A stretch of DNA of 24,803 nt, taken from the IMG/VR virus record IMGVR_UViG_3300006226_000014, positions 1 through 24,803 of that record; one strand, 5' to 3'. The position numbers and the translations under genes are program-made. Positions 1,213 to 24,544 of this stretch are shown here, in pieces; positions within the stretch are counted from its first letter, which is position 1, and the number at the start of each line of letters is the position of its first letter. Source of the stretch: a virus (lineage: Duplodnaviria; Heunggongvirae; Uroviricota; Caudoviricetes). A model generated the notes under the pieces. It was not told where the DNA came from, did not search any database, and worked only from the letters and a program-made list of their open reading frames with translations.

Positions 1213-3939
1213 TTAAGCTTGTGGTAAGTTCTCTAAGATTAGTGTTACTGTCTCGGAGAAGGTGTATACTCTAACCTCTACTCTAATAACAAAGTTTCGT
1301 TGTGCTTTTGTTAATGGAGTATTTTGTCCCATTATATCACAAGTTGCCAATGCCCAAATTGGCGAAGAACCTCCTGTGCGTTTTGCCAAGATATTCTCGA
1401 CTTGAGTTTGTCGCAAGCCCATCCAATATTCATTGATTGGCTTCATTATCTGTTGTCTCATTACATTGTCTCGAATTTCTCGTTTGACAAGTTGGAAAGA
1501 AAGTGAATGGCCTAAGAATGACCAGTCAGATACAAAGTTAGGATCTTGAGTTGTCTTTTGAGAGACTATCATTAAACCATCATCTGAAGTAAAGACTATT
1601 GGATTGACACCCTTAGTATCAAGCGTCTTAGTTGCTTCGTCTTCGAACTGATATTTTGATCTTAATACGCTGCGCTTTAATTGTCCGCCTAAATCTCCAG
1701 CAATGTTGTACCAAGCTGGTGCCCATCCGCCGTATTTGCGTTCAACTATTCTCATTAAGTTACATCCAACATCACCGATTGGTTGACACCAGAATTTCTT
1801 AAATGTGATTGGATCATACATCTCAAACTCACCAGCATACTGTGCATTAGAAGTTGTAGACACACGACCAGTTACTATAACGCGTTGTGCTATTTGGTCT
1901 GTTACAACACCCTTGTTATTAGGTACTAAAATCTTAGGAGATATAACAGCTGCTAATTCTTGATTTTTGTTGATAGCTACTAAAGCTGATTTGAAATCTT
2001 CTTGACCAGTTGGCTCCATAAAGAGGAACACATCATCATATTCAGGAAGAATAGCTTCTTGCAAACCATCTAAAATGATTTGATAGTATTCTTGACGATA
2101 GACGCCGCCAGTCTTTTGTTCTATTTGATTCATAGTGGCAACTAATGTACAATATCTATCACCTTCAATAGTAAAGGCTTTCTCTGAAAGAGTTTCGCCA
2201 TCTCTATCTAAGTCAAATGGATCAATGATTCGTTTGTGAGTCCAGAATCCCATTTCGTCTAAGTCTTCAGGATCATCACCGAACTTCTTAAGTACACGTA
2301 CTTCTAAGAATGATACATCGTCATCTTGTAGAATTTCTGGGAAGTAGATTTTGCCACCAAAGTTGTCTTTACCTTGTTCGTCTAATGAACCAGTGAATTC
2401 ACCACCAGATGTCACTTTGCCAACATAAACTTCTTCTGAGCAAGATACTGTAAGCGCGTTGAACCAAGTGTTCTTTGGTGCACTATCACCAGATGCCATA
2501 CCCTTGATATAAGCATTTGGTCCATCAATACCATAAAGTGCGATGTTCTCTTCTTCAGTCAAGAGGTGCTTAATGTTAGATGCAGATTCTACATAGAAAA
2601 TCTTATGGAATAAGTCAGTGTTCATTCCGCCATAAAGTGATTCTTGACAAGTAACATATTGAGTAACAAAATTGCCAGTTATGTCTCTATAGTATGCAGC
2701 GCCATCATCTGAATCAGCTGCGTCAACATATTGTCCAATGCGGAATATTCGGTCAGATTGTGTTGGGTTATAGAAAGCAACATATTCATTATCTTCCATA
2801 GCTGCATTTAATGCATTTTGTTCTGTTGGTGTTAAGCTACCAGTAATTCGTATTCTAAGTTTTCTGTCAGCATTCCAAATGTTTTGATCATAAGGAGCAT
2901 ATGCCAGTAATCGTTGATAGTGATATTTGTCATATCCGATCATTGAGATACGAACTGTTGTCACCTTTTCTGTTGGAGATTTTTGCATGAAATAAGCATA
3001 TGTATCATTACGAATTGAAACGAGATAATAGATGTTGTCTTGGATGCCGAAAGCTACTGAGTATGTGTCAATGCCGTCTGTCCACCAACCATCTATCAAG
3101 AGCTTCATAAGGCCTTCAGCATTAGTGAGCTTAATGTCAGTTGGATCAGAAGAATCAAAGAAAGCATCATAGTTCTTTTCGCCAATCCAGTCTTTAAGAG
3201 GGGTTGGGATATCACCAGAACCATACTTCATACCGAAGTTGTCCATCGTTGCAGTTTGTCCAGCAAATGTCCAAAGTTCGCTATCATTATCGCCCCAGTA
3301 TGTCTTAACTGAGCTAACACCAGAGACTAATCCATTTCTCATTGGATCATATTCTATTTCAGTAACGTTAAGCCTGCGATCTTTTGTCATAATGAGAGCA
3401 GCATTTGCGTCTTTCTTAAACTCAAAGACACCATAGCCAGGTTCGTTAATGTCAGGTACATAATCTTCTAATTCAGGTGCTTGTATGATAATGCTAGTTT
3501 TTCGATTAGTAAAGTCACCATTGAACATCTGTTCTCTACCAGGTTGAACCTTTACTTTGAAAGCGTTTCCTGCTCCGTCTTGTAATTCATACTTATCAGA
3601 TACGCCGTAGAACTTATAGACGCCATTCTTCGTAATATAGAAACCACCTAATTCAGATGGATATGCTTCACTTGTTCCAGGAGGAGCTGATATGTAGATT
3701 GGGTACTCATCGTTAAATGCCTTAGCCTCAATTAAGTCGGGCCAATGAGCTGAACCAACACCCATAAGTGCGTCAATAGCTTGAGCACTTCCACGTGGGA
3801 AATACGTTGCTCTTTGAGTTCCTTTTGGTGCACGAGCTACGATGTACCCGTTAATTGGACTTTCATTTGATACCAACACAAATGAACTGTCGATATCTAT
3901 AAACTTGAGTCTCCATGATCTGCGATTATTGAATGCCAT
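1213..3939 (-). CDS. Contractile tail sheath protein (T4 gp18-like, enlarged, 908 aa)
   Basis: N-terminus (KFIDIDSS...GYIVARAPKG) and C-terminus (LDTKGVNPIV, QKT, FLGHSLSFQLVKREI, NTPLTKAQRNFVIRVEVRVYTFSETVTL) follow the sheath-family pattern; strong SD AAGGAG; dedicated terminator; phage structural context. Confidence 0.82.
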   Translation of the reverse strand: MAFNNRRSWRLKFIDIDSSFVLVSNESPINGYIVARAPKGTQRATYFPRGSAQAIDALMGVGSAHWPDLIEAKAFNDEYPIYISAPPGTSEAYPSELGGFYITKNGVYKFYGVSDKYELQDGAGNAFKVKVQPGREQMFNGDFTNRKTSIIIQAPELEDYVPDINEPGYGVFEFKKDANAALIMTKDRRLNVTEIEYDPMRNGLVSGVSSVKTYWGDNDSELWTFAGQTATMDNFGMKYGSGDIPTPLKDWIGEKNYDAFFDSSDPTDIKLTNAEGLMKLLIDGWWTDGIDTYSVAFGIQDNIYYLVSIRNDTYAYFMQKSPTEKVTTVRISMIGYDKYHYQRLLAYAPYDQNIWNADRKLRIRITGSLTPTEQNALNAAMEDNEYVAFYNPTQSDRIFRIGQYVDAADSDDGAAYYRDITGNFVTQYVTCQESLYGGMNTDLFHKIFYVESASNIKHLLTEEENIALYGIDGPNAYIKGMASGDSAPKNTWFNALTVSCSEEVYVGKVTSGGEFTGSLDEQGKDNFGGKIYFPEILQDDDVSFLEVRVLKKFGDDPEDLDEMGFWTHKRIIDPFDLDRDGETLSEKAFTIEGDRYCTLVATMNQIEQKTGGVYRQEYYQIILDGLQEAILPEYDDVFLFMEPTGQEDFKSALVAINKNQELAAVISPKILVPNNKGVVTDQIAQRVIVTGRVSTTSNAQYAGEFEMYDPITFKKFWCQPIGDVGCNLMRIVERKYGGWAPAWYNIAGDLGGQLKRSVLRSKYQFEDEATKTLDTKGVNPIVFTSDDGLMIVSQKTTQDPNFVSDWSFLGHSLSFQLVKREIRDNVMRQQIMKPINEYWMGLRQTQVENILAKRTGGSSPIWALATCDIMGQNTPLTKAQRNFVIRVEVRVYTFSETVTLILENLPQA

Positions 3940-3979: not shown

Positions 3980-4528
3980 TTACTTACCAATATCTTTCAT
4001 TTTCTTCTTATACCATTTAGGCACATAATACTCATATTTTGGGCCCATCGTCATAAGAACCTTATTCACATCATCTTCATCAAACATGTGTCTGGCGTCT
4101 ACAGTTCCATTTGATCTAATAACTTCTTCAATGTCTGAGTCAGATGGCTTTTGTCGTTGTCTTTTCATATCACCAAAAGGCAATAGTTGTTGGCCATTTT
4201 CACCATCTCCTGGTCCCCAATCACCACTTAGAAGTTTTTGTTCTCTTCTAAATATGTATGTTGATAAGTCTTTAATTGTCATATCCTTATGAAAGCTTTT
4301 TCCCCATTCTTTACTGTTCCAGATTTGGTCAGCTATTTCTTGGGGTGATGAACCTTCTTCTAATGATTCATCAATATAACTATCAAGTCGATTATCATAT
4401 CCGCCCAAGCCAACAGTAAATGTGCTATCTTCATTATTAATGTAATTTTGAGTAAGCAGCTTATCTAAAAATGGCCGCTTTGGCATCGTAGCTTCATTAA
4501 GCTTATAGATATCTTCAAAAGTTTTCAT
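3980..4528 (-). CDS. Hypothetical protein, candidate internal head protein with capsid-targeting-like N-terminus (182 aa)
   Basis: Start reassigned to ATG 4528 (AAAGGAGA-GAAC-ATG) rather than 4543; N-terminus MKTFEDIYKLNEA resembles T4 internal-protein capsid targeting sequences (MKTF/MKTY...E). Confidence 0.7.
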   Translation of the reverse strand: MKTFEDIYKLNEATMPKRPFLDKLLTQNYINNEDSTFTVGLGGYDNRLDSYIDESLEEGSSPQEIADQIWNSKEWGKSFHKDMTIKDLSTYIFRREQKLLSGDWGPGDGENGQQLLPFGDMKRQRQKPSDSDIEEVIRSNGTVDARHMFDEDDVNKVLMTMGPKYEYYVPKWYKKKMKDIGK

Positions 4529-5903
4529 GTTCTCTCCTTTCATCTTTTCTTTTTATTTCCTGAATATTTTTGATATATTCTGCTATATCTTTATTATTTT
4601 TACACACTTCTTTATAGATATTATCATTATATTTTGTAAAATTAATCTTAAAAGTTTCTTTTTTTAGAAAATCTAAATCATCTGAGATTTTTGATTCTTT
4701 TTTCAAATTTTCATATAATTCTGTACTAGGAATTAAACTTAATACTCTAGCCTGTAATCTAATATATTTATTAGAGTTTCTTAATACATATTCTAAAGTT
4801 TGTAGTAATTCATCATAAGTTTCATTAGGAACACCAGTTAAAAAATTCCCAATACATTCTAATTTTAAATTATTATGATAATTAATAACTTTTTCAATAT
4901 TTAAGAAATTAATATTCTTTTTAAAACTTTTTAATTTTTGGTTAAAAATAGATTCTAATCCATAAAAAATTCTAAGACAATAATGTTCTTTAAAAAACTT
5001 AAGATTTTCATAATTAATAACATTACAGGATAAATATGATTCCCAAGAAATAGTCATTTGGTTCTGTTTGTTTTTTAATGATATATAAGAACTTATTTTT
5101 TTTAACAAATCAATACTGGGATTTTCTCCAATTATATGTATAAATTTATGTTTATTAGTATATTTTTTTGAAAAATATGAATAGATATAGTCAAGTTCTT
5201 TTTTTATCAATTCAAAATCTCTTTCTCTATAGTTATAAGCTAAACTACAAAAAGTACAAGAATTTACGCACCCACGAGAAACTATTATAGGAATTCGTAT
5301 AGACGTGTTAGTGGTCGAATCTACTCTAAAATATTTTAAAAAATCTGATTTATAAAGATCATAATTTATAGATAATTTAATTTTATTTATGTCATAAAAT
5401 TTTGTATTTAATTCATTTTTTATAAAGCCAGAATCTGTTAAATATAATAAATTCTTTATAGTGCTTAAATCTGTATTATTCTCTATAGCCATCATTAATT
5501 GTACTAAACTTTCTTCTGCTTCTCCAATAATTGCAAAATCTGGTTTAACATATTCCATAATTAACTCTGGATGATGTGTAACTAAAGGACCACCTAAAAT
5601 AGTCTTTATATTTAATTCTTTCATTCTTTTAACAAAATCTATAAAAAAATTAAATTCTGTAGATAAACCAGCTAACATAATAAAATCAATTTTTACAGTT
5701 TTTAATACGTTTTCTATCTCTTTCAAAAAATTTATTTTATCATTTTTGTTTCTAGGATTAAAACTTGTTTGATATATTTCTAAATCAAAATTATGTTCTT
5801 TAATTTTATTTATTAAAATATGAGGACCTATAATTATATCATAATAAATTGAACCATTTTTTTGTTTAGTATATTCTGGTACTAATATAAATAAGTATTT
5901 AAT
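4515..5903 (-). CDS. Cobalamin-binding radical SAM enzyme (class B radical SAM methyltransferase-like), about 462 aa with proposed ATT start
   Basis: CxxxCxxC motif SRGCVNSCTFC (about 5249-5281); B12-binding-domain motifs ILGGPLVT and DFAIIGEAE; FYGLES and FLTGVPNET C-terminal motifs. Frame stays open 59 codons upstream of the track start (5726) to ATT 5903, 7 nt after GGAGA. Confidence 0.88.
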   Translation of the reverse strand: MKYLFILVPEYTKQKNGSIYYDIIIGPHILINKIKEHNFDLEIYQTSFNPRNKNDKINFLKEIENVLKTVKIDFIMLAGLSTEFNFFIDFVKRMKELNIKTILGGPLVTHHPELIMEYVKPDFAIIGEAEESLVQLMMAIENNTDLSTIKNLLYLTDSGFIKNELNTKFYDINKIKLSINYDLYKSDFLKYFRVDSTTNTSIRIPIIVSRGCVNSCTFCSLAYNYRERDFELIKKELDYIYSYFSKKYTNKHKFIHIIGENPSIDLLKKISSYISLKNKQNQMTISWESYLSCNVINYENLKFFKEHYCLRIFYGLESIFNQKLKSFKKNINFLNIEKVINYHNNLKLECIGNFLTGVPNETYDELLQTLEYVLRNSNKYIRLQARVLSLIPSTELYENLKKESKISDDLDFLKKETFKINFTKYNDNIYKEVCKNNKDIAEYIKNIQEIKRKDERREHENF

Positions 5904-5919
5904 TTTAATCTCTCCTCAT

Positions 5920-6972
5920 TTATAAAGATTGTTTTGGTAAACTAGCCTCAGTTAATTGATAGATATTTTCAAATATTTTATTTTTCATTAAGTTATCTTC
6001 TTTGGGAAAATCTTCTTCTCCAAAAGTTGGATTATATTGTCTTTTCTTTTCATCCCACGCATAATTTTTGTTCTCTGATCTAAATCTTTGTCTATCAGCA
6101 TGGTCTCCACAAACATATTTAATGTAATCTAATGGACCAAGAGATCGATGATCAAAAAACTTTTTCCATCGTTTTTTGTAATCTGGATCACTAGACAATA
6201 TCTCTAAAATTTCTTCTGGTGTATGATGAGCATTAAAGAGCCATCTAATATCTTGTTCTAAATCTTCTGCTTTCATCCAATGAGGTTGAAATTTCCACTT
6301 CCATCCCTTATCTTTTTCATATTTGTCTGAAGTTGCAGTCTCTTTAAGTGTGCTCTCTCCTAAAAAGTCTAGTTCACCTGGCTTAGCATCGGCGAAACTT
6401 AATCCGCCCATATCGGCAACAGTTGGCTTTCCATAAGCTTCCATTCTAGCAGTATAACCATCAGCTATTGGTCGTCTAACTCTTTCACCGTTTGATCTAA
6501 TCCAAAATGCTTCATCATCTGGATCAACACGTCCTTCGTCTAATCGTTTACCAACACAATGGAAGATAGTGCCTTTTGGAAACATACGATAATCTTCTAA
6601 CAACTTAACATCAGTGCCCATAGATCGGCTCTCACTTAGTATCTGTACAAATGGTGATTGCAAATCTTCTGGTTCAGTAACTGGCGGTAAGATATTAGGA
6701 GTTGGTTGTCGTCTTCCTAATTCAGGCGGATCAAATGTAGAATATTCAGCTGGTGTCACACCCTGATCTTGCTTTTGAACTGGTGGCTTTTGTACATACA
6801 CCTGTGATTCATCTGGTGGTATATCAAGCAATTTAGGTTGATATCCAGTTTCAGCAGGTATTCCAATATCTCGTGGAGTTATGAAATAGGCAACAGTTGT
6901 ACCTTTTGGCGCTATAAATGATAATGACGTTAAGAAGTCATCTAAATTATATTCCTTATTTGTTAAAAACAT
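5920..6972 (-). CDS. Hypothetical protein (Pro/Gln-rich N-terminal part, several L-x-E motifs), candidate processed head/core protein
   Basis: 350-aa ORF, SD AAAGGAG; motifs ILSES, LLEDY, RLDEG, FLGES, TLKET, QLTEA; last 22 aa resemble the N-terminus of the 3980-4528 product. Confidence 0.7.
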   Translation of the reverse strand: MFLTNKEYNLDDFLTSLSFIAPKGTTVAYFITPRDIGIPAETGYQPKLLDIPPDESQVYVQKPPVQKQDQGVTPAEYSTFDPPELGRRQPTPNILPPVTEPEDLQSPFVQILSESRSMGTDVKLLEDYRMFPKGTIFHCVGKRLDEGRVDPDDEAFWIRSNGERVRRPIADGYTARMEAYGKPTVADMGGLSFADAKPGELDFLGESTLKETATSDKYEKDKGWKWKFQPHWMKAEDLEQDIRWLFNAHHTPEEILEILSSDPDYKKRWKKFFDHRSLGPLDYIKYVCGDHADRQRFRSENKNYAWDEKKRQYNPTFGEEDFPKEDNLMKNKIFENIYQLTEASLPKQSL

Positions 6973-6985
6973 TGATTAATCTCCT

Positions 6986-7513
6986 TTAATTTCCTGCCCA
7001 ACCAATATTAGCTTTAGCTCCTAAAGCATTGCCAACTGAGGCTGCTACATCAGAGCCCCAACTTTTTCCATATTTTTGTTGAACTTCGGCTTGTGCTGAT
7101 TTCCATTGTGAATCATTGTATCCTTTGCCATTTGAAGTAGACATAAGTTTATATTTTGAAAATAAATTTCTAGCAGAAGGTAGATCTAATGACTTAATTA
7201 AATAATGAGATACATTATTTTCATCAACTTTATCTTCATCTTTAGGAGTTAATTTTAAATCAAAAAAAGACACTGGTTCATTATTTTGTTTTCCAGTTAC
7301 ATAAATATCTGTTTTACCATTTCCAATATTAAGATAAACTTGATTTATTGCATTTGTTGTTTTTTGTACATAAAATAAAGCCCAACCTGCTTGAGATGCT
7401 GTTGGATCTTTTAATTGTTGTAATAATGTTGCAACATCTTTAGCTTCTCTTAATTTAATTCCACCAAAAGGTTCACTTTCTTGTAGTTGTTGTAAATAAG
7501 TATCATTCCACAT
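6986..7513 (-). CDS. Hypothetical protein, candidate internal head protein
   Basis: 175-aa ORF, GGAGG SD, TAATG-coupled to upstream gene; N-terminal QLQES and KLREA motifs. Confidence 0.72.
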   Translation of the reverse strand: MWNDTYLQQLQESEPFGGIKLREAKDVATLLQQLKDPTASQAGWALFYVQKTTNAINQVYLNIGNGKTDIYVTGKQNNEPVSFFDLKLTPKDEDKVDENNVSHYLIKSLDLPSARNLFSKYKLMSTSNGKGYNDSQWKSAQAEVQQKYGKSWGSDVAASVGNALGAKANIGWAGN

Positions 7514-12387: not shown

Positions 12388-12411
12388 ACTATTTCTCCTT
12401 ATTATAGTTAG

Positions 12412-13449
12412 TTAGTTGGACATAAAGTTAGCTAACGGAATGTCAAGAGCAGAGTAGTCAACTGCGTAACCTATATCTTCCATAGATGCAACTGTGAACT
12501 TACTAACAAAACTATTAGTAGTTGTAGTATAGTTCATGAGTTCATTATAGAATGGTCCATTAGGATCAGCTCCTGGTGCTCTGAAGCCCCAATGAGACAA
12601 CGCACTACCACCAGCATTTTGTACAGTTGCAACAGGATTAGTAGAAGGATGTATCGGTATGAACATCTGTAAATCATAAGTTGCTTCATCATAAGCAGCT
12701 AAACCTTGTGGACCTATATATTTTGGATCGATTGGTGAACCTATTCCGATATTATTAGAATTGGGATTAATTCCAGAACTTAAAACGGGACCAAATCCTA
12801 AAAGAGTAACTAATAAGTTCCATGGAAAAACATTAGCATTGGCTATTAAGTCAGGAAGAGAAGTTGTGCCCGCAGGCCCTGTTATTAATCGGAAGTTTCC
12901 ATTCCATAATGCACCAAAACCTAAGACATGAAATAGTTCATGAAGTGCAGTATAGAAAAAACGTTGTTGTGGGTTTCCTATAGGATGACATTGTGAACAA
13001 GAACAAAACTTAATAGAGCCAGACTTTACTGTGATATAATTTTCGTAAATATCTATCGCATCAAATGTTTGTAAAATTTCGCTTATATCTATATTGCCGT
13101 TAAAGTTAGTAGCCATATTTCCAGGACCACCCTGACCAGAAAAATGATTCTCACCAAAAATAAGCTGATCAAAAGTTACTTTAACTGGAATTGTTCGTTG
13201 TTCTGAAGAGTAATTAACGCCAGTAATAATCTGTTCTAAAAAATTTACAGCATCATAAAGCCAAGTTTCATATAACGATCCCTTATATTCATTTGGAATC
13301 TCAGTTATGTCTAAATCTATCTTAAAATTAGTTTGAGCTGGGCTTGTCTTATATATTTGATATGCTACATTTTTTGTTCCAGAGGCTAATAGTTCTAAAG
13401 TATGTCGCTTTAATCGTCCATTATTGTCTTTTTTGAATATAGAGTCCAT
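12412..13449 (-). CDS. Leishmanolysin-like (peptidase M8 / metzincin) zinc metalloprotease
   Basis: HELFH (HExxH, 12928-12942) in HELFHVLGFG, distal SHW third ligand (GGSALSHW), Met-turn NELM, C-terminal T.ASMEDIGY; no signal peptide visible. Confidence 0.85.
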   Translation of the reverse strand: MDSIFKKDNNGRLKRHTLELLASGTKNVAYQIYKTSPAQTNFKIDLDITEIPNEYKGSLYETWLYDAVNFLEQIITGVNYSSEQRTIPVKVTFDQLIFGENHFSGQGGPGNMATNFNGNIDISEILQTFDAIDIYENYITVKSGSIKFCSCSQCHPIGNPQQRFFYTALHELFHVLGFGALWNGNFRLITGPAGTTSLPDLIANANVFPWNLLVTLLGFGPVLSSGINPNSNNIGIGSPIDPKYIGPQGLAAYDEATYDLQMFIPIHPSTNPVATVQNAGGSALSHWGFRAPGADPNGPFYNELMNYTTTTNSFVSKFTVASMEDIGYAVDYSALDIPLANFMSN

Positions 13450-13466
13450 AAATAATTAGTGGTTTG

Positions 13467-13892
13467 CTAATTATATCTCCATACAAATTTGTCGACAACT
13501 GCTGTTCCAGGAAATTCTAGACGAGTAACCCTGACTACTAATGTTTCAGTTCCTTTGAAGAAAAGAGGAGGCAAAATAGTTCCTCTTTCATCATTTTGCT
13601 CAGTATAGGCTTGATGGATCCATCTAACTGAGTCATCTAACAGCTTAACACCTAAATGTAGATGATGAATAGCATATGCTCGTGTGCAGTTAGCCGTTAC
13701 AATACGATACCAGCCAGTTTGACTTAATGGAACTTCTAAATCATCAGTTGACTGAATGCTTTGAGATATCAACGTCATATCAGCAGTATAGTCAGGTGGA
13801 AATGAGATAAGAGAAATATCTTTTAATGTTAGGACTGAATCTCGTGTTAATTTGCGTGGGATAGAAATCTTTATATCTTTGTAAACTTCCAT
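13467..13892 (-). CDS. Hypothetical beta-rich protein (141 aa)
   Basis: Intact ORF between fibre array and protease; no SD, preceded by ACTAAATTATT; no recognisable family. Confidence 0.7.
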   Translation of the reverse strand: MEVYKDIKISIPRKLTRDSVLTLKDISLISFPPDYTADMTLISQSIQSTDDLEVPLSQTGWYRIVTANCTRAYAIHHLHLGVKLLDDSVRWIHQAYTEQNDERGTILPPLFFKGTETLVVRVTRLEFPGTAVVDKFVWRYN

Positions 13893-18544: not shown

Positions 18545-21500
18545 TTAATTAGTAAATTCAAACGTATATGCTATGTTTGGTAGTGGAGTTCCTATTGGTC
18601 TATCTTTTAATTTATAAATATAATAATTATCAACACCATTATTATCAATAGACGTTGAAAATTTATCCCATTCATGATTTTTTGGTACTCCACCAATATC
18701 TTTTATTTGAAATATATCCATACTCTGTGGACATACAAATATTAAATCACCTATTATATTTGTAAATAAGTGATTTTCAATATTATTAGCAACTGCAGGA
18801 TCGATTGTTACTTTTTGTTTTATATATCCATTTTCTAATAAATTAAGTGGCGATCCTACTGCTGTTGGTATAAACCCAGGACTAATACTACCTTCTAAAA
18901 GCCCCGCGATTCTATTAATATCTCGTAATGGATCAAATATTGCTCCAGTTACTTGATCTGGATTAGCAAAATCAATATTACCCGGCATATAAAGTGCGCC
19001 TTCTGGAATAAATTCACCATACCATATTTTTTCAGCTGGTTGTGGGAATACTAATGTAAATTGATCAGTGTCTTCTCCAAAATCATCATCAATATCATAA
19101 ACTTCAACTTTTACATTATAAGTTTTGCTCTGATTTAATCCATTAAATGTTGCAACAATATATAGTCCATCATCATTTAAGAACTGTGATACATTAATAG
19201 TTTCCATTTCTAAATCATCTAAATAAACTTTAGCTTCTTTTAAAGCGCAAGAACCTTTTGTTATATCAGCTTTTATGCTAACACTAAATGGTGCAATATG
19301 TTCTCCATTAACTTTCGCTGCCTCAATATCTGTAGTAACAGTAACTTCAACAGTTGGTAAAGTTATTACAGTATATGTGGCATATATATCCAAGTTACTT
19401 GTAACATTAGAATAGTCCTTATCCCAGCTATCAAAATGATAGCCATTTTTAGTTGGATCTTCAGGAGGAATTGCTGCACTACCATGATTGACTGTTTGAC
19501 CAGCTTTAATAACAGTAACTTTATCATCATCATAGAATGTTACAGTATATTTATTGATAACCCATTCAGCATATAAGTCTAAATTAGATGTAATTGGAGT
19601 AGTAGTAAAAGTAAATTGATTAGTAAAAGTTTCATCATCTAAATACCACCCATTAAGTGTATAACCAGTTTTATTTGGATTATGTGCTGTTGCAGTTTGT
19701 AAATATTCTACTGGTTCAGTATAAACTATTACACCTTCTATCCAGAAATTAACATTATATTCATTTATTTCCCAATCAGCAACTAATGTAATGTCTCCAG
19801 TAATAGGTGTAGAGAAATTAAATGAACTTTCATTTAAAGTCCATCCGCTATTCTGTAAATGATAACCAGTTTTTGTAGGAGCTGGATCAGGTATAGTTGC
19901 AGTTGCATTCCAATTTACAGTTTGAGATGGTGGAGTAATATTTCCACCATCTGAATTAAAAGTTACTGTAAATGTTTTTATAGCATATTGAGCCTTAATA
20001 ATTATATTTTCTTCAATATTATTATAAGATTTATCCCAACCATTTGGATCATATCCTTCTCTATTTGGATGAGATGGCGGAATTGCATTATTTCCATGAT
20101 CAATATATTGTATATCAATGGGTGGCGTATTTATATCATCTGTATAATCCCAACCAACAAATTTTACTTCATAATTATTTATTTCATATTCAGCATAAAT
20201 ATCATTTTCGGCGGGAAGTGGCTCTAATTGACTATAATCAAAATTACCAGATTCTATATAATCCCAATTATCTGTTTTATGCCAACCTTCTTTATCAGTT
20301 ATTGATGGAGGACTTGGTTCATCTCCGTATTCTACTGTTTCATCTCCAATTATTATATACTTATTAGTATCATTATCCCAGCCCCAATAATTTATTTTAT
20401 ATTGTAATTTAACATATTCACCATATAAAGTTATTTCACCTGCAATAGGTGTATTAAAATTAAATTTAGGAGGAGTTAGTCCGCTATTATCATACCAACC
20501 ATTAAAGTTATGGCCTTCAATATCTTCTGGATAGATTTCAGCTGCAGTAGAATTTTCAACTACACTTTGAGCTAAATCATTCTCTATTCCTTCGCCATAG
20601 TCAAAATAGACTTTATATCTAGGAGCACTAATTTCTTCTACCCAATAGAGTTGGCATCCGCTTATTGTATCTATTGTTTTGTTTGTTACAGAAAATTTAA
20701 GTGTGAATACACCATCATTTTCTGTCATATTACTGATTACATCAGCTGGATCTTGAACATTATATCCATATAATTTAAATATATCACCAATGGATTCCAT
20801 TGTGAGAGTTTTGAAATGTCCGCTTATAGCTAAGTTTGTTAATTTTTCTAATGAAATAAGTTTTTCATCATCATTAATGCTTAAACCAGACACGTGGCCG
20901 CTTACTATAATAGCGTCAATGTCTTCAAGATAATCATGTTCGTGGTTGCCCTCTGCAACAGTTCCAGCAATATCACCAAACTCTTTATTAAATGCGCTAT
21001 TCTTACTAAAAGCTTTCTCAGCACCAATAGCTTCTGGAGTTACTCTAATGTTTCCAGCATTGAAAGGAGCAGGATCTTCGCCTAATGCAACTTTAGTTCC
21101 AGCTGGAATAATATGCGTGTGTTGTGTTACTACATTTTCTTCACCTAAAGGCTCTTTAGCCCACTGTGGGACTGTTGGATCTTCTTCTTCTGTTAAATAT
21201 TCATGACTATGATTACCAGCTGCTGCAGTTGTTCCAGTTGTTCCAATTTGTAAAAATGCTGGCTTATTAGTAATTTCATCCCATGCATGATCATGATCTT
21301 CTAGTTCATAAGGATCAGGAGTATCTTCAATTTCTCCATAATTATATGTTGGCTTATTTTCTGCTTTTGCCCAAGGTGATACATCTTTAGCATTTCTATC
21401 ATCAGAAAGTCTAGAATCCCCTTCTTCTATATAGTTGCCTATTGGTTGATAATCATGTGTATGTTGTGACGCTTTAGTCCCATTTAAGCTTTCTTTTGCC

Positions 21501-22516
21501 CATGACGGCACAGTTGGATCTGTTTCTGTAAATGATTGTAGTGCTGTATCTGCTTTGCTTAAACTATTTTGAACAGATTCAGCTAAATCACCTTTTGGTA
21601 TGCCATCAGCTGGTTTATCATATTTTGCATCCCAATCAGATTTATTTTGTAAAGTAACATGTATATCATTATTTGTAAAATGATCATGAGTATGATTACT
21701 TAAAGCATAATTACCCAAATCTTCAATATCTGATTCAGTATGAGTATGAGGGCCTGTAACATGTGTATGACCAGCTGGAGAAGCACCTATATTTTCAGGA
21801 GTAATTAATATCGATTTATTTACTGAAGCATTAGCACTAAAAGTATCATTTAATGTTAAACCACTAATAGTTAATGTCGCATCATTTGGTATAGTATCAT
21901 TATCAACAAGGCCTGAAATAGCTTCTCTTAACTCACTATCATCATAAATAGTATCATTATCTATTATTCCTGAAATAGCTTCTCTTAATTCTGAATCATC
22001 ATATATTGTATCACTGTCTATTAAACCAGAAATAGCTTGCCGTAATTCGCTATCATCATATCGCATATTATCAGCACTAATTACATTATCAACTATAGAT
22101 ATATTATCGCCACCCGTATATGTTGTATCATTATCAGTTAATTTCGATATTTCAGTGTTAGTATAATCTTTAGCATCTTGTAAAGCTTGACTAATTTCAG
22201 GTTCCCAATCTTTTCCCTCTATAGCTTCTGGAAGATAAACTTGTGGTTCTGGTATAATTTCAGGACTAATAATTGTAACCCAGTCATCACCCAATTCTTC
22301 TGGCTTATAATCTTGTGTAAACCAATATTCACGAGGACCAGGATGATCATTTGCTGTATCATCTTTTACTGTAAATTTTAAACCAGTAAATCTTAAAGTT
22401 TTTATAATATCTGCTTTAGCTTCTTCTAAATTTTCAAAAATAGTTTTACCATCTATTGGTCTATTAGTTGTAGGCCAAAAACTATCTCCAAAATTTATTG
22501 ATCCTTGTTTTGCCAT
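18545..22516 (-). CDS. Large fibre/adhesin-like virion protein (1323 aa): N-terminal module, acidic repeats, HxH-rich shaft, about six Listeria-Bacteroides (InlB-B/Flg_new-type) repeats, Ig-like domain, C-terminal domain
   Basis: Repeats with YxVxF...P.K.GY.F.GW...F.F.TPI.....LYA.W pattern at about 19370-20620; eight HxH motifs at about 20931-21780; YDDSELREAISG repeats; C-terminal domain paralogous to 22529-24544. Confidence 0.85.
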   Translation of the reverse strand: MAKQGSINFGDSFWPTTNRPIDGKTIFENLEEAKADIIKTLRFTGLKFTVKDDTANDHPGPREYWFTQDYKPEELGDDWVTIISPEIIPEPQVYLPEAIEGKDWEPEISQALQDAKDYTNTEISKLTDNDTTYTGGDNISIVDNVISADNMRYDDSELRQAISGLIDSDTIYDDSELREAISGIIDNDTIYDDSELREAISGLVDNDTIPNDATLTISGLTLNDTFSANASVNKSILITPENIGASPAGHTHVTGPHTHTESDIEDLGNYALSNHTHDHFTNNDIHVTLQNKSDWDAKYDKPADGIPKGDLAESVQNSLSKADTALQSFTETDPTVPSWAKESLNGTKASQHTHDYQPIGNYIEEGDSRLSDDRNAKDVSPWAKAENKPTYNYGEIEDTPDPYELEDHDHAWDEITNKPAFLQIGTTGTTAAAGNHSHEYLTEEEDPTVPQWAKEPLGEENVVTQHTHIIPAGTKVALGEDPAPFNAGNIRVTPEAIGAEKAFSKNSAFNKEFGDIAGTVAEGNHEHDYLEDIDAIIVSGHVSGLSINDDEKLISLEKLTNLAISGHFKTLTMESIGDIFKLYGYNVQDPADVISNMTENDGVFTLKFSVTNKTIDTISGCQLYWVEEISAPRYKVYFDYGEGIENDLAQSVVENSTAAEIYPEDIEGHNFNGWYDNSGLTPPKFNFNTPIAGEITLYGEYVKLQYKINYWGWDNDTNKYIIIGDETVEYGDEPSPPSITDKEGWHKTDNWDYIESGNFDYSQLEPLPAENDIYAEYEINNYEVKFVGWDYTDDINTPPIDIQYIDHGNNAIPPSHPNREGYDPNGWDKSYNNIEENIIIKAQYAIKTFTVTFNSDGGNITPPSQTVNWNATATIPDPAPTKTGYHLQNSGWTLNESSFNFSTPITGDITLVADWEINEYNVNFWIEGVIVYTEPVEYLQTATAHNPNKTGYTLNGWYLDDETFTNQFTFTTTPITSNLDLYAEWVINKYTVTFYDDDKVTVIKAGQTVNHGSAAIPPEDPTKNGYHFDSWDKDYSNVTSNLDIYATYTVITLPTVEVTVTTDIEAAKVNGEHIAPFSVSIKADITKGSCALKEAKVYLDDLEMETINVSQFLNDDGLYIVATFNGLNQSKTYNVKVEVYDIDDDFGEDTDQFTLVFPQPAEKIWYGEFIPEGALYMPGNIDFANPDQVTGAIFDPLRDINRIAGLLEGSISPGFIPTAVGSPLNLLENGYIKQKVTIDPAVANNIENHLFTNIIGDLIFVCPQSMDIFQIKDIGGVPKNHEWDKFSTSIDNNGVDNYYIYKLKDRPIGTPLPNIAYTFEFTN
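21891..22062. repeat. Three tandem 57-bp (19-aa) coding repeats YDDSELR(E/Q)AISG(L/I)(I/V)D(S/N)DTI
   Basis: cc(t/a)gaaatagctt cores at 21912, 21969 and 22026 (57-nt period), in frame within the 1323-aa gene. Confidence 0.9.
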
Positions 22517-22528
22517 GCTTTATCTCCT

Positions 22529-24544
22529 TTATTTATAAAATACATTTAATGTATATTCTGGACTTGATTGAAATACACCGCCTGCATTTGAAAAAATGTA
22601 CATATAATAATTCATTCCATCTATATTAGTATTAAAAGATCTACTGTCAAAACTCATTGGAGTAGTACCAGCTTCAAAATGGTCAACTTCAAAAGGTGTA
22701 ATAAATACCACCCAAGATATTCCATCTAAATAAATTGGTGTTTTTTGAGTTGCTACGGACTCTTCTGTTAATTTTAAGTATCCATCAGGATATTGTTCAA
22801 ATTGGTTACCAACAGCACCTACTAAGTTCATTACTCCATTTTGACCATTTTTTATATAATCAATAAGTAAATCTTCAAGTTGTTGTGCATCATAAGTACC
22901 AAAATTTGTACCAACAAATGTACCTGGAGTAACATTAGGATTATAAACTGATCCAGGAAGAAAATATTCACCATAAAAAAGTTTTCCAACAACTACATTT
23001 GCCTCCATTTTTGCCCAGATTGTAATCGGACCAGTAATGGGTGTAGAAAAGCTCCATGCTGTAGTACAAGCTTTATCTGAATACCATCCACCAAAATCAT
23101 ACCCACTTGGAGGTGTTGGATTACCCGGATCAGATACTGTATTATTATAGTTAACTGAAGTTGATGAAATTGGTGTATCATCTTCCCAAGCAAATGTAAC
23201 TGTATAAGAATTAATGTTCCATCCAGCATAAATTGTAGTATTAGCTTTTATTTGAGTTCCAAAATTAAATGGAGTTGTTAATGCACTAGTTGTAAACCAG
23301 CCTTCAAAGGTATAACCTGTTTTTCCGCTTGCTGGGCCAGGATTAGTTACATTTCCATTATAGTTAACTGTTTGTGATCCAATAGCAGAGCCCCCATCAA
23401 CATCAAATGATACAGTAAATTGTTGTATATCAAATTTACCATATATTGTTGTGTCATTAGTAATGAAAGTATCAAAATCAAATAGAGTTGTAAATGCATT
23501 ATCTTCAAACCATCCGCCAAAATCATAGCCTTCTAATCCAAGATCACCTGGATCACTTACTGTATTTCCATTAGATACGAATATTGTCCAATTTTCTTGA
23601 GTAACCCAAGAACCAAAGGTGCCAACATCGAAGGTAATGCTTCTCATTGCAACACCTTTAGGAGCCCAATAGAGTAGATTATCTTTTACTTGTTTCTGTC
23701 CGCCAACTTCTTCTAATTCAAATTCTAATACATAAGGACCAACTGCTTCACCAAAAATCTCTTTTGGATCTTGCACTCTATATCCATAAAGTGTCATGTG
23801 ATCATTAACGCGTAAATTATCTATGCTTGCTCTTTCAAAGAAGCCACGAGTTGCAATTAAGCGTTCTTCTATATTTACATCACCATTAGTAACATTTATT
23901 CCATCTTGAGCAGTAAGTAATCCAGATATTGTAGCAATACCTTCTAAGGTAGTATTACCACCAACATTTAAGTCACTATCAATATCAACAATACCTCTAA
24001 AATTAGAATCACCAAGTACTAATACAGAACCAGTAATGTCTAATCCATCATTACTTGTTATTTTACCAGTAACAACAAGTGTTCCACCCATTGTAGTATT
24101 ATCATCTACATTTAATGTTCCGCTAATAGTTGCATTACCATTAACTTCTAATCTTTTAGTTATTACTGCAGTTATATATCTGATATCAACTGGCCATTGT
24201 ACACTATAAGTATTGGTATCAGCATTATAGCTATTTAATTCTCTAACAGTAAAGCTTTCAAGATAATTCTCTGAGTCCCTGTTTTCTATTACATCATATT
24301 TCCAACCAGCCTTAACTGCTATTGATGAAAATTGATATCGAGTATCTATAATTCTTAAATCATTTTGACTAAAATCATAGCCCAAAGAATATGATGGTAA
24401 TGGAACACTTAAGTCTAACTTATCGTCATCTTCTAATGACAGTATTAGTTGTCTATCATTTTTAGGATCAATGAAAATCTTAAATTGTAAATCCTCAATT
24501 ACTGCAACATGATTGCGGCCTGCTTCTGTTATCTTATAACTCAT
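22529..24544 (-). CDS. Fibre/adhesin-like virion protein (671 aa) with beta-repeat shaft and three Listeria-Bacteroides repeats
   Basis: Short beta repeats (LEVNGNATISGTLNVDDNTTMGGTLVVTG...), LYGYRVQDP linker, three xxTF...P.P..GY.F.GWF/Y repeats (about 23000-23650), C-terminal domain paralogous to the 1323-aa protein; SD AAGGAG. Confidence 0.85.
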   Translation of the reverse strand: MSYKITEAGRNHVAVIEDLQFKIFIDPKNDRQLILSLEDDDKLDLSVPLPSYSLGYDFSQNDLRIIDTRYQFSSIAVKAGWKYDVIENRDSENYLESFTVRELNSYNADTNTYSVQWPVDIRYITAVITKRLEVNGNATISGTLNVDDNTTMGGTLVVTGKITSNDGLDITGSVLVLGDSNFRGIVDIDSDLNVGGNTTLEGIATISGLLTAQDGINVTNGDVNIEERLIATRGFFERASIDNLRVNDHMTLYGYRVQDPKEIFGEAVGPYVLEFELEEVGGQKQVKDNLLYWAPKGVAMRSITFDVGTFGSWVTQENWTIFVSNGNTVSDPGDLGLEGYDFGGWFEDNAFTTLFDFDTFITNDTTIYGKFDIQQFTVSFDVDGGSAIGSQTVNYNGNVTNPGPASGKTGYTFEGWFTTSALTTPFNFGTQIKANTTIYAGWNINSYTVTFAWEDDTPISSTSVNYNNTVSDPGNPTPPSGYDFGGWYSDKACTTAWSFSTPITGPITIWAKMEANVVVGKLFYGEYFLPGSVYNPNVTPGTFVGTNFGTYDAQQLEDLLIDYIKNGQNGVMNLVGAVGNQFEQYPDGYLKLTEESVATQKTPIYLDGISWVVFITPFEVDHFEAGTTPMSFDSRSFNTNIDGMNYYMYIFSNAGGVFQSSPEYTLNVFYK

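Follow-up and report, generated by a model that had tools for sequence, protein, structure and literature searches.

A B12-binding radical SAM gene between two related leader sequences of a putative head-cargo polyprotein locus in an uncultured phage

Two genes that flank a radical SAM gene in a 24,803-nt stretch of phage DNA (the window), here called U and D, are probably two pieces of one modular polyprotein gene, the product of which was probably packaged in the phage head. The explanation we consider the better one, with some reserve, is that U and D were once fused and that imperfectly homologous recombination at a leader inside this gene brought in the foreign gene, with a stub remaining on U and with a ribosome binding site (RBS) and leader restarting D.

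The window comprises the first 24.8 kb of a 108-kb contig (G000) from an uncultured phage, which is about 33% complete. It represents a tail region on the minus strand, as indicated by matches to sheath and baseplate proteins, and U, the radical SAM gene and D are all encoded on this strand. The related genomes are those of giant phages (199-329 kb). Two genes served as synteny anchors: the tail sheath gene downstream (1213..3939, minus strand; PHROG 34521) and a 175-aa gene upstream (6986..7513, minus strand), a homologue of which precedes U in the loci L001, L003, L016 and L018. The sheath is 67-73% identical to those of relatives, the best being 73%, which means that no close relative was on hand, and the sheath tree did not settle the branching order; the ancestral state was therefore derived by parsimony only. 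An M8-like metalloprotease gene with a weak Pfam match is located at 12412-13449 of the window, and L001 has a similar gene after the sheath.

The initial annotation had noted that the last 22 residues of U, starting at ATG 5988, match the first residues of D at both the protein and DNA levels, and this was confirmed. The left copy (5920..5988, minus strand) is a 22-codon stub in frame at the end of U, made up of a leader, an L-T-E site, eight residues and the stop codon, and the right copy (4479..4532, minus strand) is the 5′ end of D. Positions 5933-5986 and 4479-4532 are 70% identical over 54 nt (repeat family D13), and a gapped alignment of the copies extends to the U stop codon. The proposed scoring against shuffled sequences gave a significant result: the protein alignment scored 57, with a mean of 16.5 and a maximum of 39 in shuffles (p = 0.0002), by which chance similarity of the U tail and the D head was rejected. 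A six-frame search of the 108-kb contig returned D as the top match of the U tail, with the runner-up at 39. The DNA match (36/54) was the best in four phage genomes and just 2 above the top background match.

The longest exact word common to both copies is 9 nt, and their identity of about 71% is at the level of orthologues between different phages here (65-71%). When the flanks were tested for the identical or near-identical direct repeats of target-site duplication or site-specific integration, none were seen (70-71% identity, 9-nt word). In addition, a non-syntenic gene of the related genome G003, with an unrelated body, matches the U tail with a score of 58 compared to 57 for D (31/42 and 30/42 nt, respectively), and matches D at 13/14 residues. 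Orthologue-level identity and an equally good third gene indicate that the U/D pair, although real, does not require local duplication as its explanation; the suggestion that insertion had duplicated a gene 5′ end lost ground on these same two observations.

The gene between the copies (4515..5903, minus strand) encodes a 462-aa B12-binding radical SAM protein of the class B type. As the initial annotation had described, it stands alone between U and D, is AT-rich and overlaps the D start: its GC content is 0.20 and GC3 is 0.11, compared to a GC content of 0.35-0.39 in U, D and the sheath gene, its last codons run through the RBS and start of D, and its stop (4515-4517) lies inside the first D codons. 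PF02310 and PF04055 matched over their cut-offs (41.6 and 48.3 bits). The cysteines of the intact CxxxCxxC motif are invariant in the homologue alignment, and the nearest radical SAM relatives are 24-31% identical. The protein resembles class B cobalamin-dependent radical SAM enzymes in having an N-terminal B12-binding domain and a radical SAM core with CxxxCxxC, but differs in matching no characterised subfamily and in its probable ATT start. All 19 NCBIfam equivalog models remained below cut-off (best 87.5 bits, cut-off 360), and no relative of the gene was found in cultured phages.

The reading frame is open from 5915 and the homologues align from ATT 5903, which corresponds to their Met; with this probable start, either a working ATT or a lost ATG, the gene encodes 462 aa and is longer than called automatically. 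Two other assemblies have identical bases here. On the same grounds a start at TTG 5726 was rejected. An RBS-like sequence GAGGAGAG (5910..5917, minus strand; 6/8 match) is located 6 nt before ATT 5903. An ATG is present right after the U stop (5907-5919, minus strand), which opens an ORF of 4 codons containing tandem AGG-AGA; if shifted by one base, this ATG would be in the radical SAM frame, a third possible start route beside ATT 5909 and ATT 5903. Frameshift fusion of U into the enzyme was rejected because TGA 5916-5918 closes the frame just past the U stop. In homologues of the cellular type a cysteine-rich C-terminal part follows, which is absent from the window enzyme (near 4515-4560). 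Since the enzyme ends at the D RBS, the right junction may have truncated it; phage radical SAM relatives of 403-428 aa are also short. No mobile-element enzyme, recombinase or transposase was detected in the insert or in ten neighbours scanned within this 33% complete contig. Most probably the enzyme is a mere passenger, functionally unconnected with either U or D.

Gene U (5920..6972, minus strand; 350 aa) can be described as a putative head-cargo polyprotein of modular build, with a conserved N-domain, swappable modules and the leader stub. The N-domain (residues 1-146; 6535..6972, minus strand) ends at an L-x-E site and is the sole part common to all full homologues, with 58-69% identity in 12 of them. 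Module C (residues 147-206; 6355..6534, minus strand) is also present in the non-syntenic protein P0013 (56% identity, E 9e-16). Module B (residues 211-322; 6007..6342, minus strand) belongs to a helical family, is paralogous to the first D module, and stops, in the alignment, where the L001 homologue has its natural C-terminus. Gene D (3980..4528, minus strand; 182 aa) consists of the leader, a B-type module extending to about residue 120 and module A (residues 129-170). Both D modules occur in frame within U homologues of relatives (42% identity in P0004; 42% in L001, E 4e-7). Behind the N-domain, homologues have modules in common in varying order, and the L/I-X-E sites of U (146, 206, 211 and 342) coincide at the sequence level with module borders defined by homology. 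Cleavage at LTE/A and packaging in the head are predicted from these sequence features. Searches for gp21 and gp23 with the prohead protease and capsid profiles PF03420 and PF07068 gave no match anywhere, controls included.

Neither U nor D matched Pfam, PHROG or NCBIfam. Predicted structures of the U N-domain and a D module were weak models (pLDDT 63 in both cases) with no match above Z 3.7 and 5.3, respectively. Homologue searches with D only returned D itself and nothing in longer proteins; they also missed P0004, a clear fused relative, and are therefore insensitive. No relative of D was found in viral contigs. U homologues in other lineages (L009, L010, L012, L075; L071; L073) are located between an IMPDH-family gene and nrdD, or elsewhere, and not before the sheath.

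The empty-site alleles predicted by the initial annotation were found in all four syntenic relatives. In each of these the interval from the 175-aa gene to the sheath gene is taken up by a single ORF (557 aa in L001, 536 in L003, 551 in L016 and 408 in L018), and the radical SAM gene is absent. The L016 protein, P0004, carries in one frame before the sheath the U N-domain, a B-type module, an internal Met with leader and a D-like module with 42% identity to D (E 3e-22, pairwise); its two B-type modules are paralogous and in tandem. Module A of D was located inside the L001 homologue. The distance from the U start to the sheath start is 1273-1786 nt in the relatives and 3033 nt in the window, or 1579 nt after subtraction of the 1454-nt unit. 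Wherever a crossover is placed within the aligned leaders, it yields an open frame of 512 aa, close to the 536-557 aa of three relatives. No free D-like gene was found in the relatives, at this site or elsewhere. Together, the four empty sites and the fused P0004 allele support the proposal of a split in-frame polyprotein. Because the relatives vary in which modules they have and in what order, P0004 demonstrates that fusion occurs, not that it occurred in the lineage of the window.

The motif had been regarded as present in two copies, and this was too narrow: it heads nine further genes or internal starts in the contig, and leader-led genes number 33 across four genomes. In D, as at nine other starts in G000, the N-terminal leader is about 10-19 residues long and has L/I-X-E at its end. 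This resembles the T4 capsid targeting sequence (CTS), where packaging is steered by residues 4 and 7, and gp21 cleaves behind L/I-X-E (PMC9026906). Leader cores were also frequent inside ORFs (24, against 7.7 in shuffled ORFs). An internal leader is present in 6/15 U homologues, and for 9/33 leader-led genes from the four genomes a different genome has the gene fused into a longer ORF; in one such case the fused copy immediately follows the N-domain of the U homologue of G003. No enrichment was seen for ORFs ending in a leader core (3/821, with 1.8 expected at the internal rate). One G001 ORF (214295-214822), the last in a run of leader-led genes, stops right at the end of a leader, which no body follows.

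A degenerate RBS (5995..6002, minus strand) is located 6 nt before ATG 5988 and matches the phage consensus AAGGAGAT at 7/8 positions. Only 3/509 internal in-frame ATGs reach such a match, and another of the three is a leader start. We infer that the U tail is a fossil gene start that has been fused into U. The RBS of D (4529..4540, minus strand) together with the first codons best matches a third leader of the genome, at G000:60647 (38/49, including 17 identical bases), and the later part of the D head best matches the U tail; this pattern fits a chimeric head, short of proof. Read in frame, the phage RBS encodes Leu-Gly-Glu, as at 6355-6363 (minus strand) of the window, at G000 60645-60657 and in G003 near 38990, and such RBS-encoded Leu-Gly-Glu was seen both where U module C ends and ahead of internal leaders. 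Consequently, fusion of a gene through its own RBS can itself create an L-x-E cut site. Two ORFs in G000 that lie beyond the window (60465-61175 and 82743-83585) have an internal in-frame RBS, ATG and leader (at 60657 and 83447) and probably represent dual starts or recent fusions.

These data suggest the following course of events. Polyprotein genes in this clade would grow by in-frame fusion of small genes, each with an RBS, an ATG and a T4-CTS-like leader ending in L-x-E, and because of this mode of growth fossil gene starts would remain inside them. The foreign AT-rich B12 radical SAM gene would have entered the fused U-D gene at an internal leader, through ordinary, imperfectly homologous (homeologous) recombination with a leader-bounded piece from elsewhere. 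The left leader would have stayed on U as the 22-codon stub, and the downstream module, thanks to the RBS and leader that precede it, would have survived as gene D. Both copies would then be diverged members of the leader family joined by the event, not a target duplication made by a recombinase. The direction of change, taken from parsimony, and the recombination route are both inferred. Evidence against this reading comes from the copies themselves, as about 70% identity over 54 nt with 9 exact bases makes a poor recombination substrate today.

Among the alternatives, replacement without a split deserves most weight, although we consider it distinctly improbable. U would have had a fused leader-led module and D would already have been free, the enzyme then replacing all of the module except its first 22 codons. 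Paralogous B-type modules do stand in tandem in P0004, and the stub matches the head of the 61175-type gene family as well as it matches D (58 and 57); this family also begins with E-A-S-M-P in G000 and G002. Furthermore, leader-led genes often form arrays, and a free 25-codon ORF, almost a leader alone and in appearance a leader remnant, is found at the same site in L016 (1868-1945), where it overlaps the P0004 stop just before the sheath. However, relatives have no free D-like gene, both D modules are known just from U homologues, and the lengths suit a simple insertion.

Less credit still can be given to local duplication, in which the RBS and first 22 codons of the D module were copied by the insertion, or by an earlier tandem duplication, in the manner of a long target-site duplication, and the copies later diverged. 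D is the best match of the U tail in the contig and, at the DNA level, in four genomes, and the similarity spans the region from the ATG to the U stop, with the decayed RBS included. Yet the divergence of 30%, mostly conservative changes, equals that of orthologues across phages and stands beside an insert still at a GC content of 0.20; a third gene matches equally well, the stub and head of a comparable G003 locus are of different leader subtypes, and the insert has no mobile-element enzyme. It is very improbable that the copies still recombine, toggling between split and fused U-D alleles or releasing the enzyme as a mini-circle. They are in codon register, so that excision would restore the frame, and mini-circles between short repeats are known from T4-type phages (PMC2839356), but only 9 exact bases are in common, no recombinase is nearby, and three assemblies carry the same allele with 0 differences over the DNA compared. 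Insertion into a fused gene remains our preferred reading.

The G003 locus mentioned above (21239-24007; L026, L061) contains a 687-aa ORF ending in a cut-off leader, then a 125-aa gene and then a leader-led 126-aa gene. The 125-aa gene is unrelated and has a homologue in a leader-free context in G001. In G000 (77546-79300, 45%) and G002 (74009-75817, 35%) the orthologous ORF carries the 126-aa module in frame at its C-terminus. By its gene arrangement, which equals that in the window, this is a second, independent split into stub, cargo and leader-led gene. Its stub and head belong to different leader subtypes, and this unlikeness argues against duplication as the general cause.

The initial annotation had also raised the possibility that the motif is a recombination hotspot for cargo exchange. 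The G003 locus adds one independent example in its favour; against it, ORF-end leaders occur at about the expected number (3, against 1.8), and four other AT-rich B12 radical SAM genes, two each in G001 and G002 (GC 0.21-0.24), lie at unrelated sites with no leader flanks. With 4/4 of these genes lacking them, leader flanks were rejected as a general route by which B12 radical SAM genes are gained. The four genes are at G001 12397-13683 and 188738-189949 and G002 101645-104108, and a cluster of radical SAM-like genes was seen in G001 near 188.7-193.4 kb. Within the clade such an enzyme is nomadic cargo of an ordinary kind. A hotspot is therefore unproven: the same picture would arise if breaks at module borders were the ones that survive, with no preference in recombination. 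It is a tentative idea, which we put at well under even chances, that DNA containing an RBS, an ATG and a head-targeting leader serves these giant phages as an integrase-free coding exchange site, where a single crossover would gain or drop modules in frame, supply them with a packaging tag and a cut site, admit unrelated genes and always restart the downstream module.

Individual parts of this arrangement are known in kind. The internal proteins IPI-III of T4 with their CTS (PMC9026906) likewise have a short N-terminal leader with aromatic or hydrophobic residues near positions 4 and 7-8 and a final L-x-E, placed before unrelated bodies at a hypervariable locus. In the clade studied here, however, leaders, the targeting role of which is predicted from sequence, also occur inside long ORFs as fossil starts, the bodies have no detectable family match, and the gene of a non-virion enzyme lies between two leaders. 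Short-repeat shuffling with mini-circles was shown for PeSL elements in RB49/phi1 (PMC2839356), and was proposed for T-even IP loci (Repoila et al. 1994, as cited in PMC2839356). As outlined in PMC2839356, these systems similarly have short repeats at gene starts as proposed sites of ordinary recombination by which ORFans are inserted, deleted or swapped. PeSL elements are non-coding promoter and stem-loop sequences, whereas the sequence here is an RBS with a coding leader, is far more diverged, and its exchange alters reading-frame fusions; no terminator-like site was found near either junction, and promoter-like matches were near shuffle level.

Polyvalent proteins (PMC5512222) also combine unrelated domains in varying series, which presumably enter together with the DNA and are set free by proteolysis. 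In U and D, by contrast, no catalogued domain (MPTase, ART, ArdC, MuF and others) was detected with Pfam, PHROG or NCBIfam, and small orphan modules are joined at a leader motif. In the account given in PMC3045599, nrdA of Aeh1 is split by mobE, again a foreign ORF breaking one coding sequence into two translated genes; relative to what is described there, the insert in the window encodes a radical SAM enzyme rather than a homing endonuclease, and each half is a module in its own right, with no need to be reassembled. The addition made here is that fission was captured at two loci, for which fused alleles serve as controls.

The locus offers a snapshot of giant phages building and breaking virion-cargo polyproteins. 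Because fossil starts inside the protein let the downstream module restart, such a gene is tolerant of insertions. If leader DNA is indeed an exchange site, the packaging signal would be tied to gene acquisition, and this would provide a rule for deducing from sequence which cargo is injected and how it arose.
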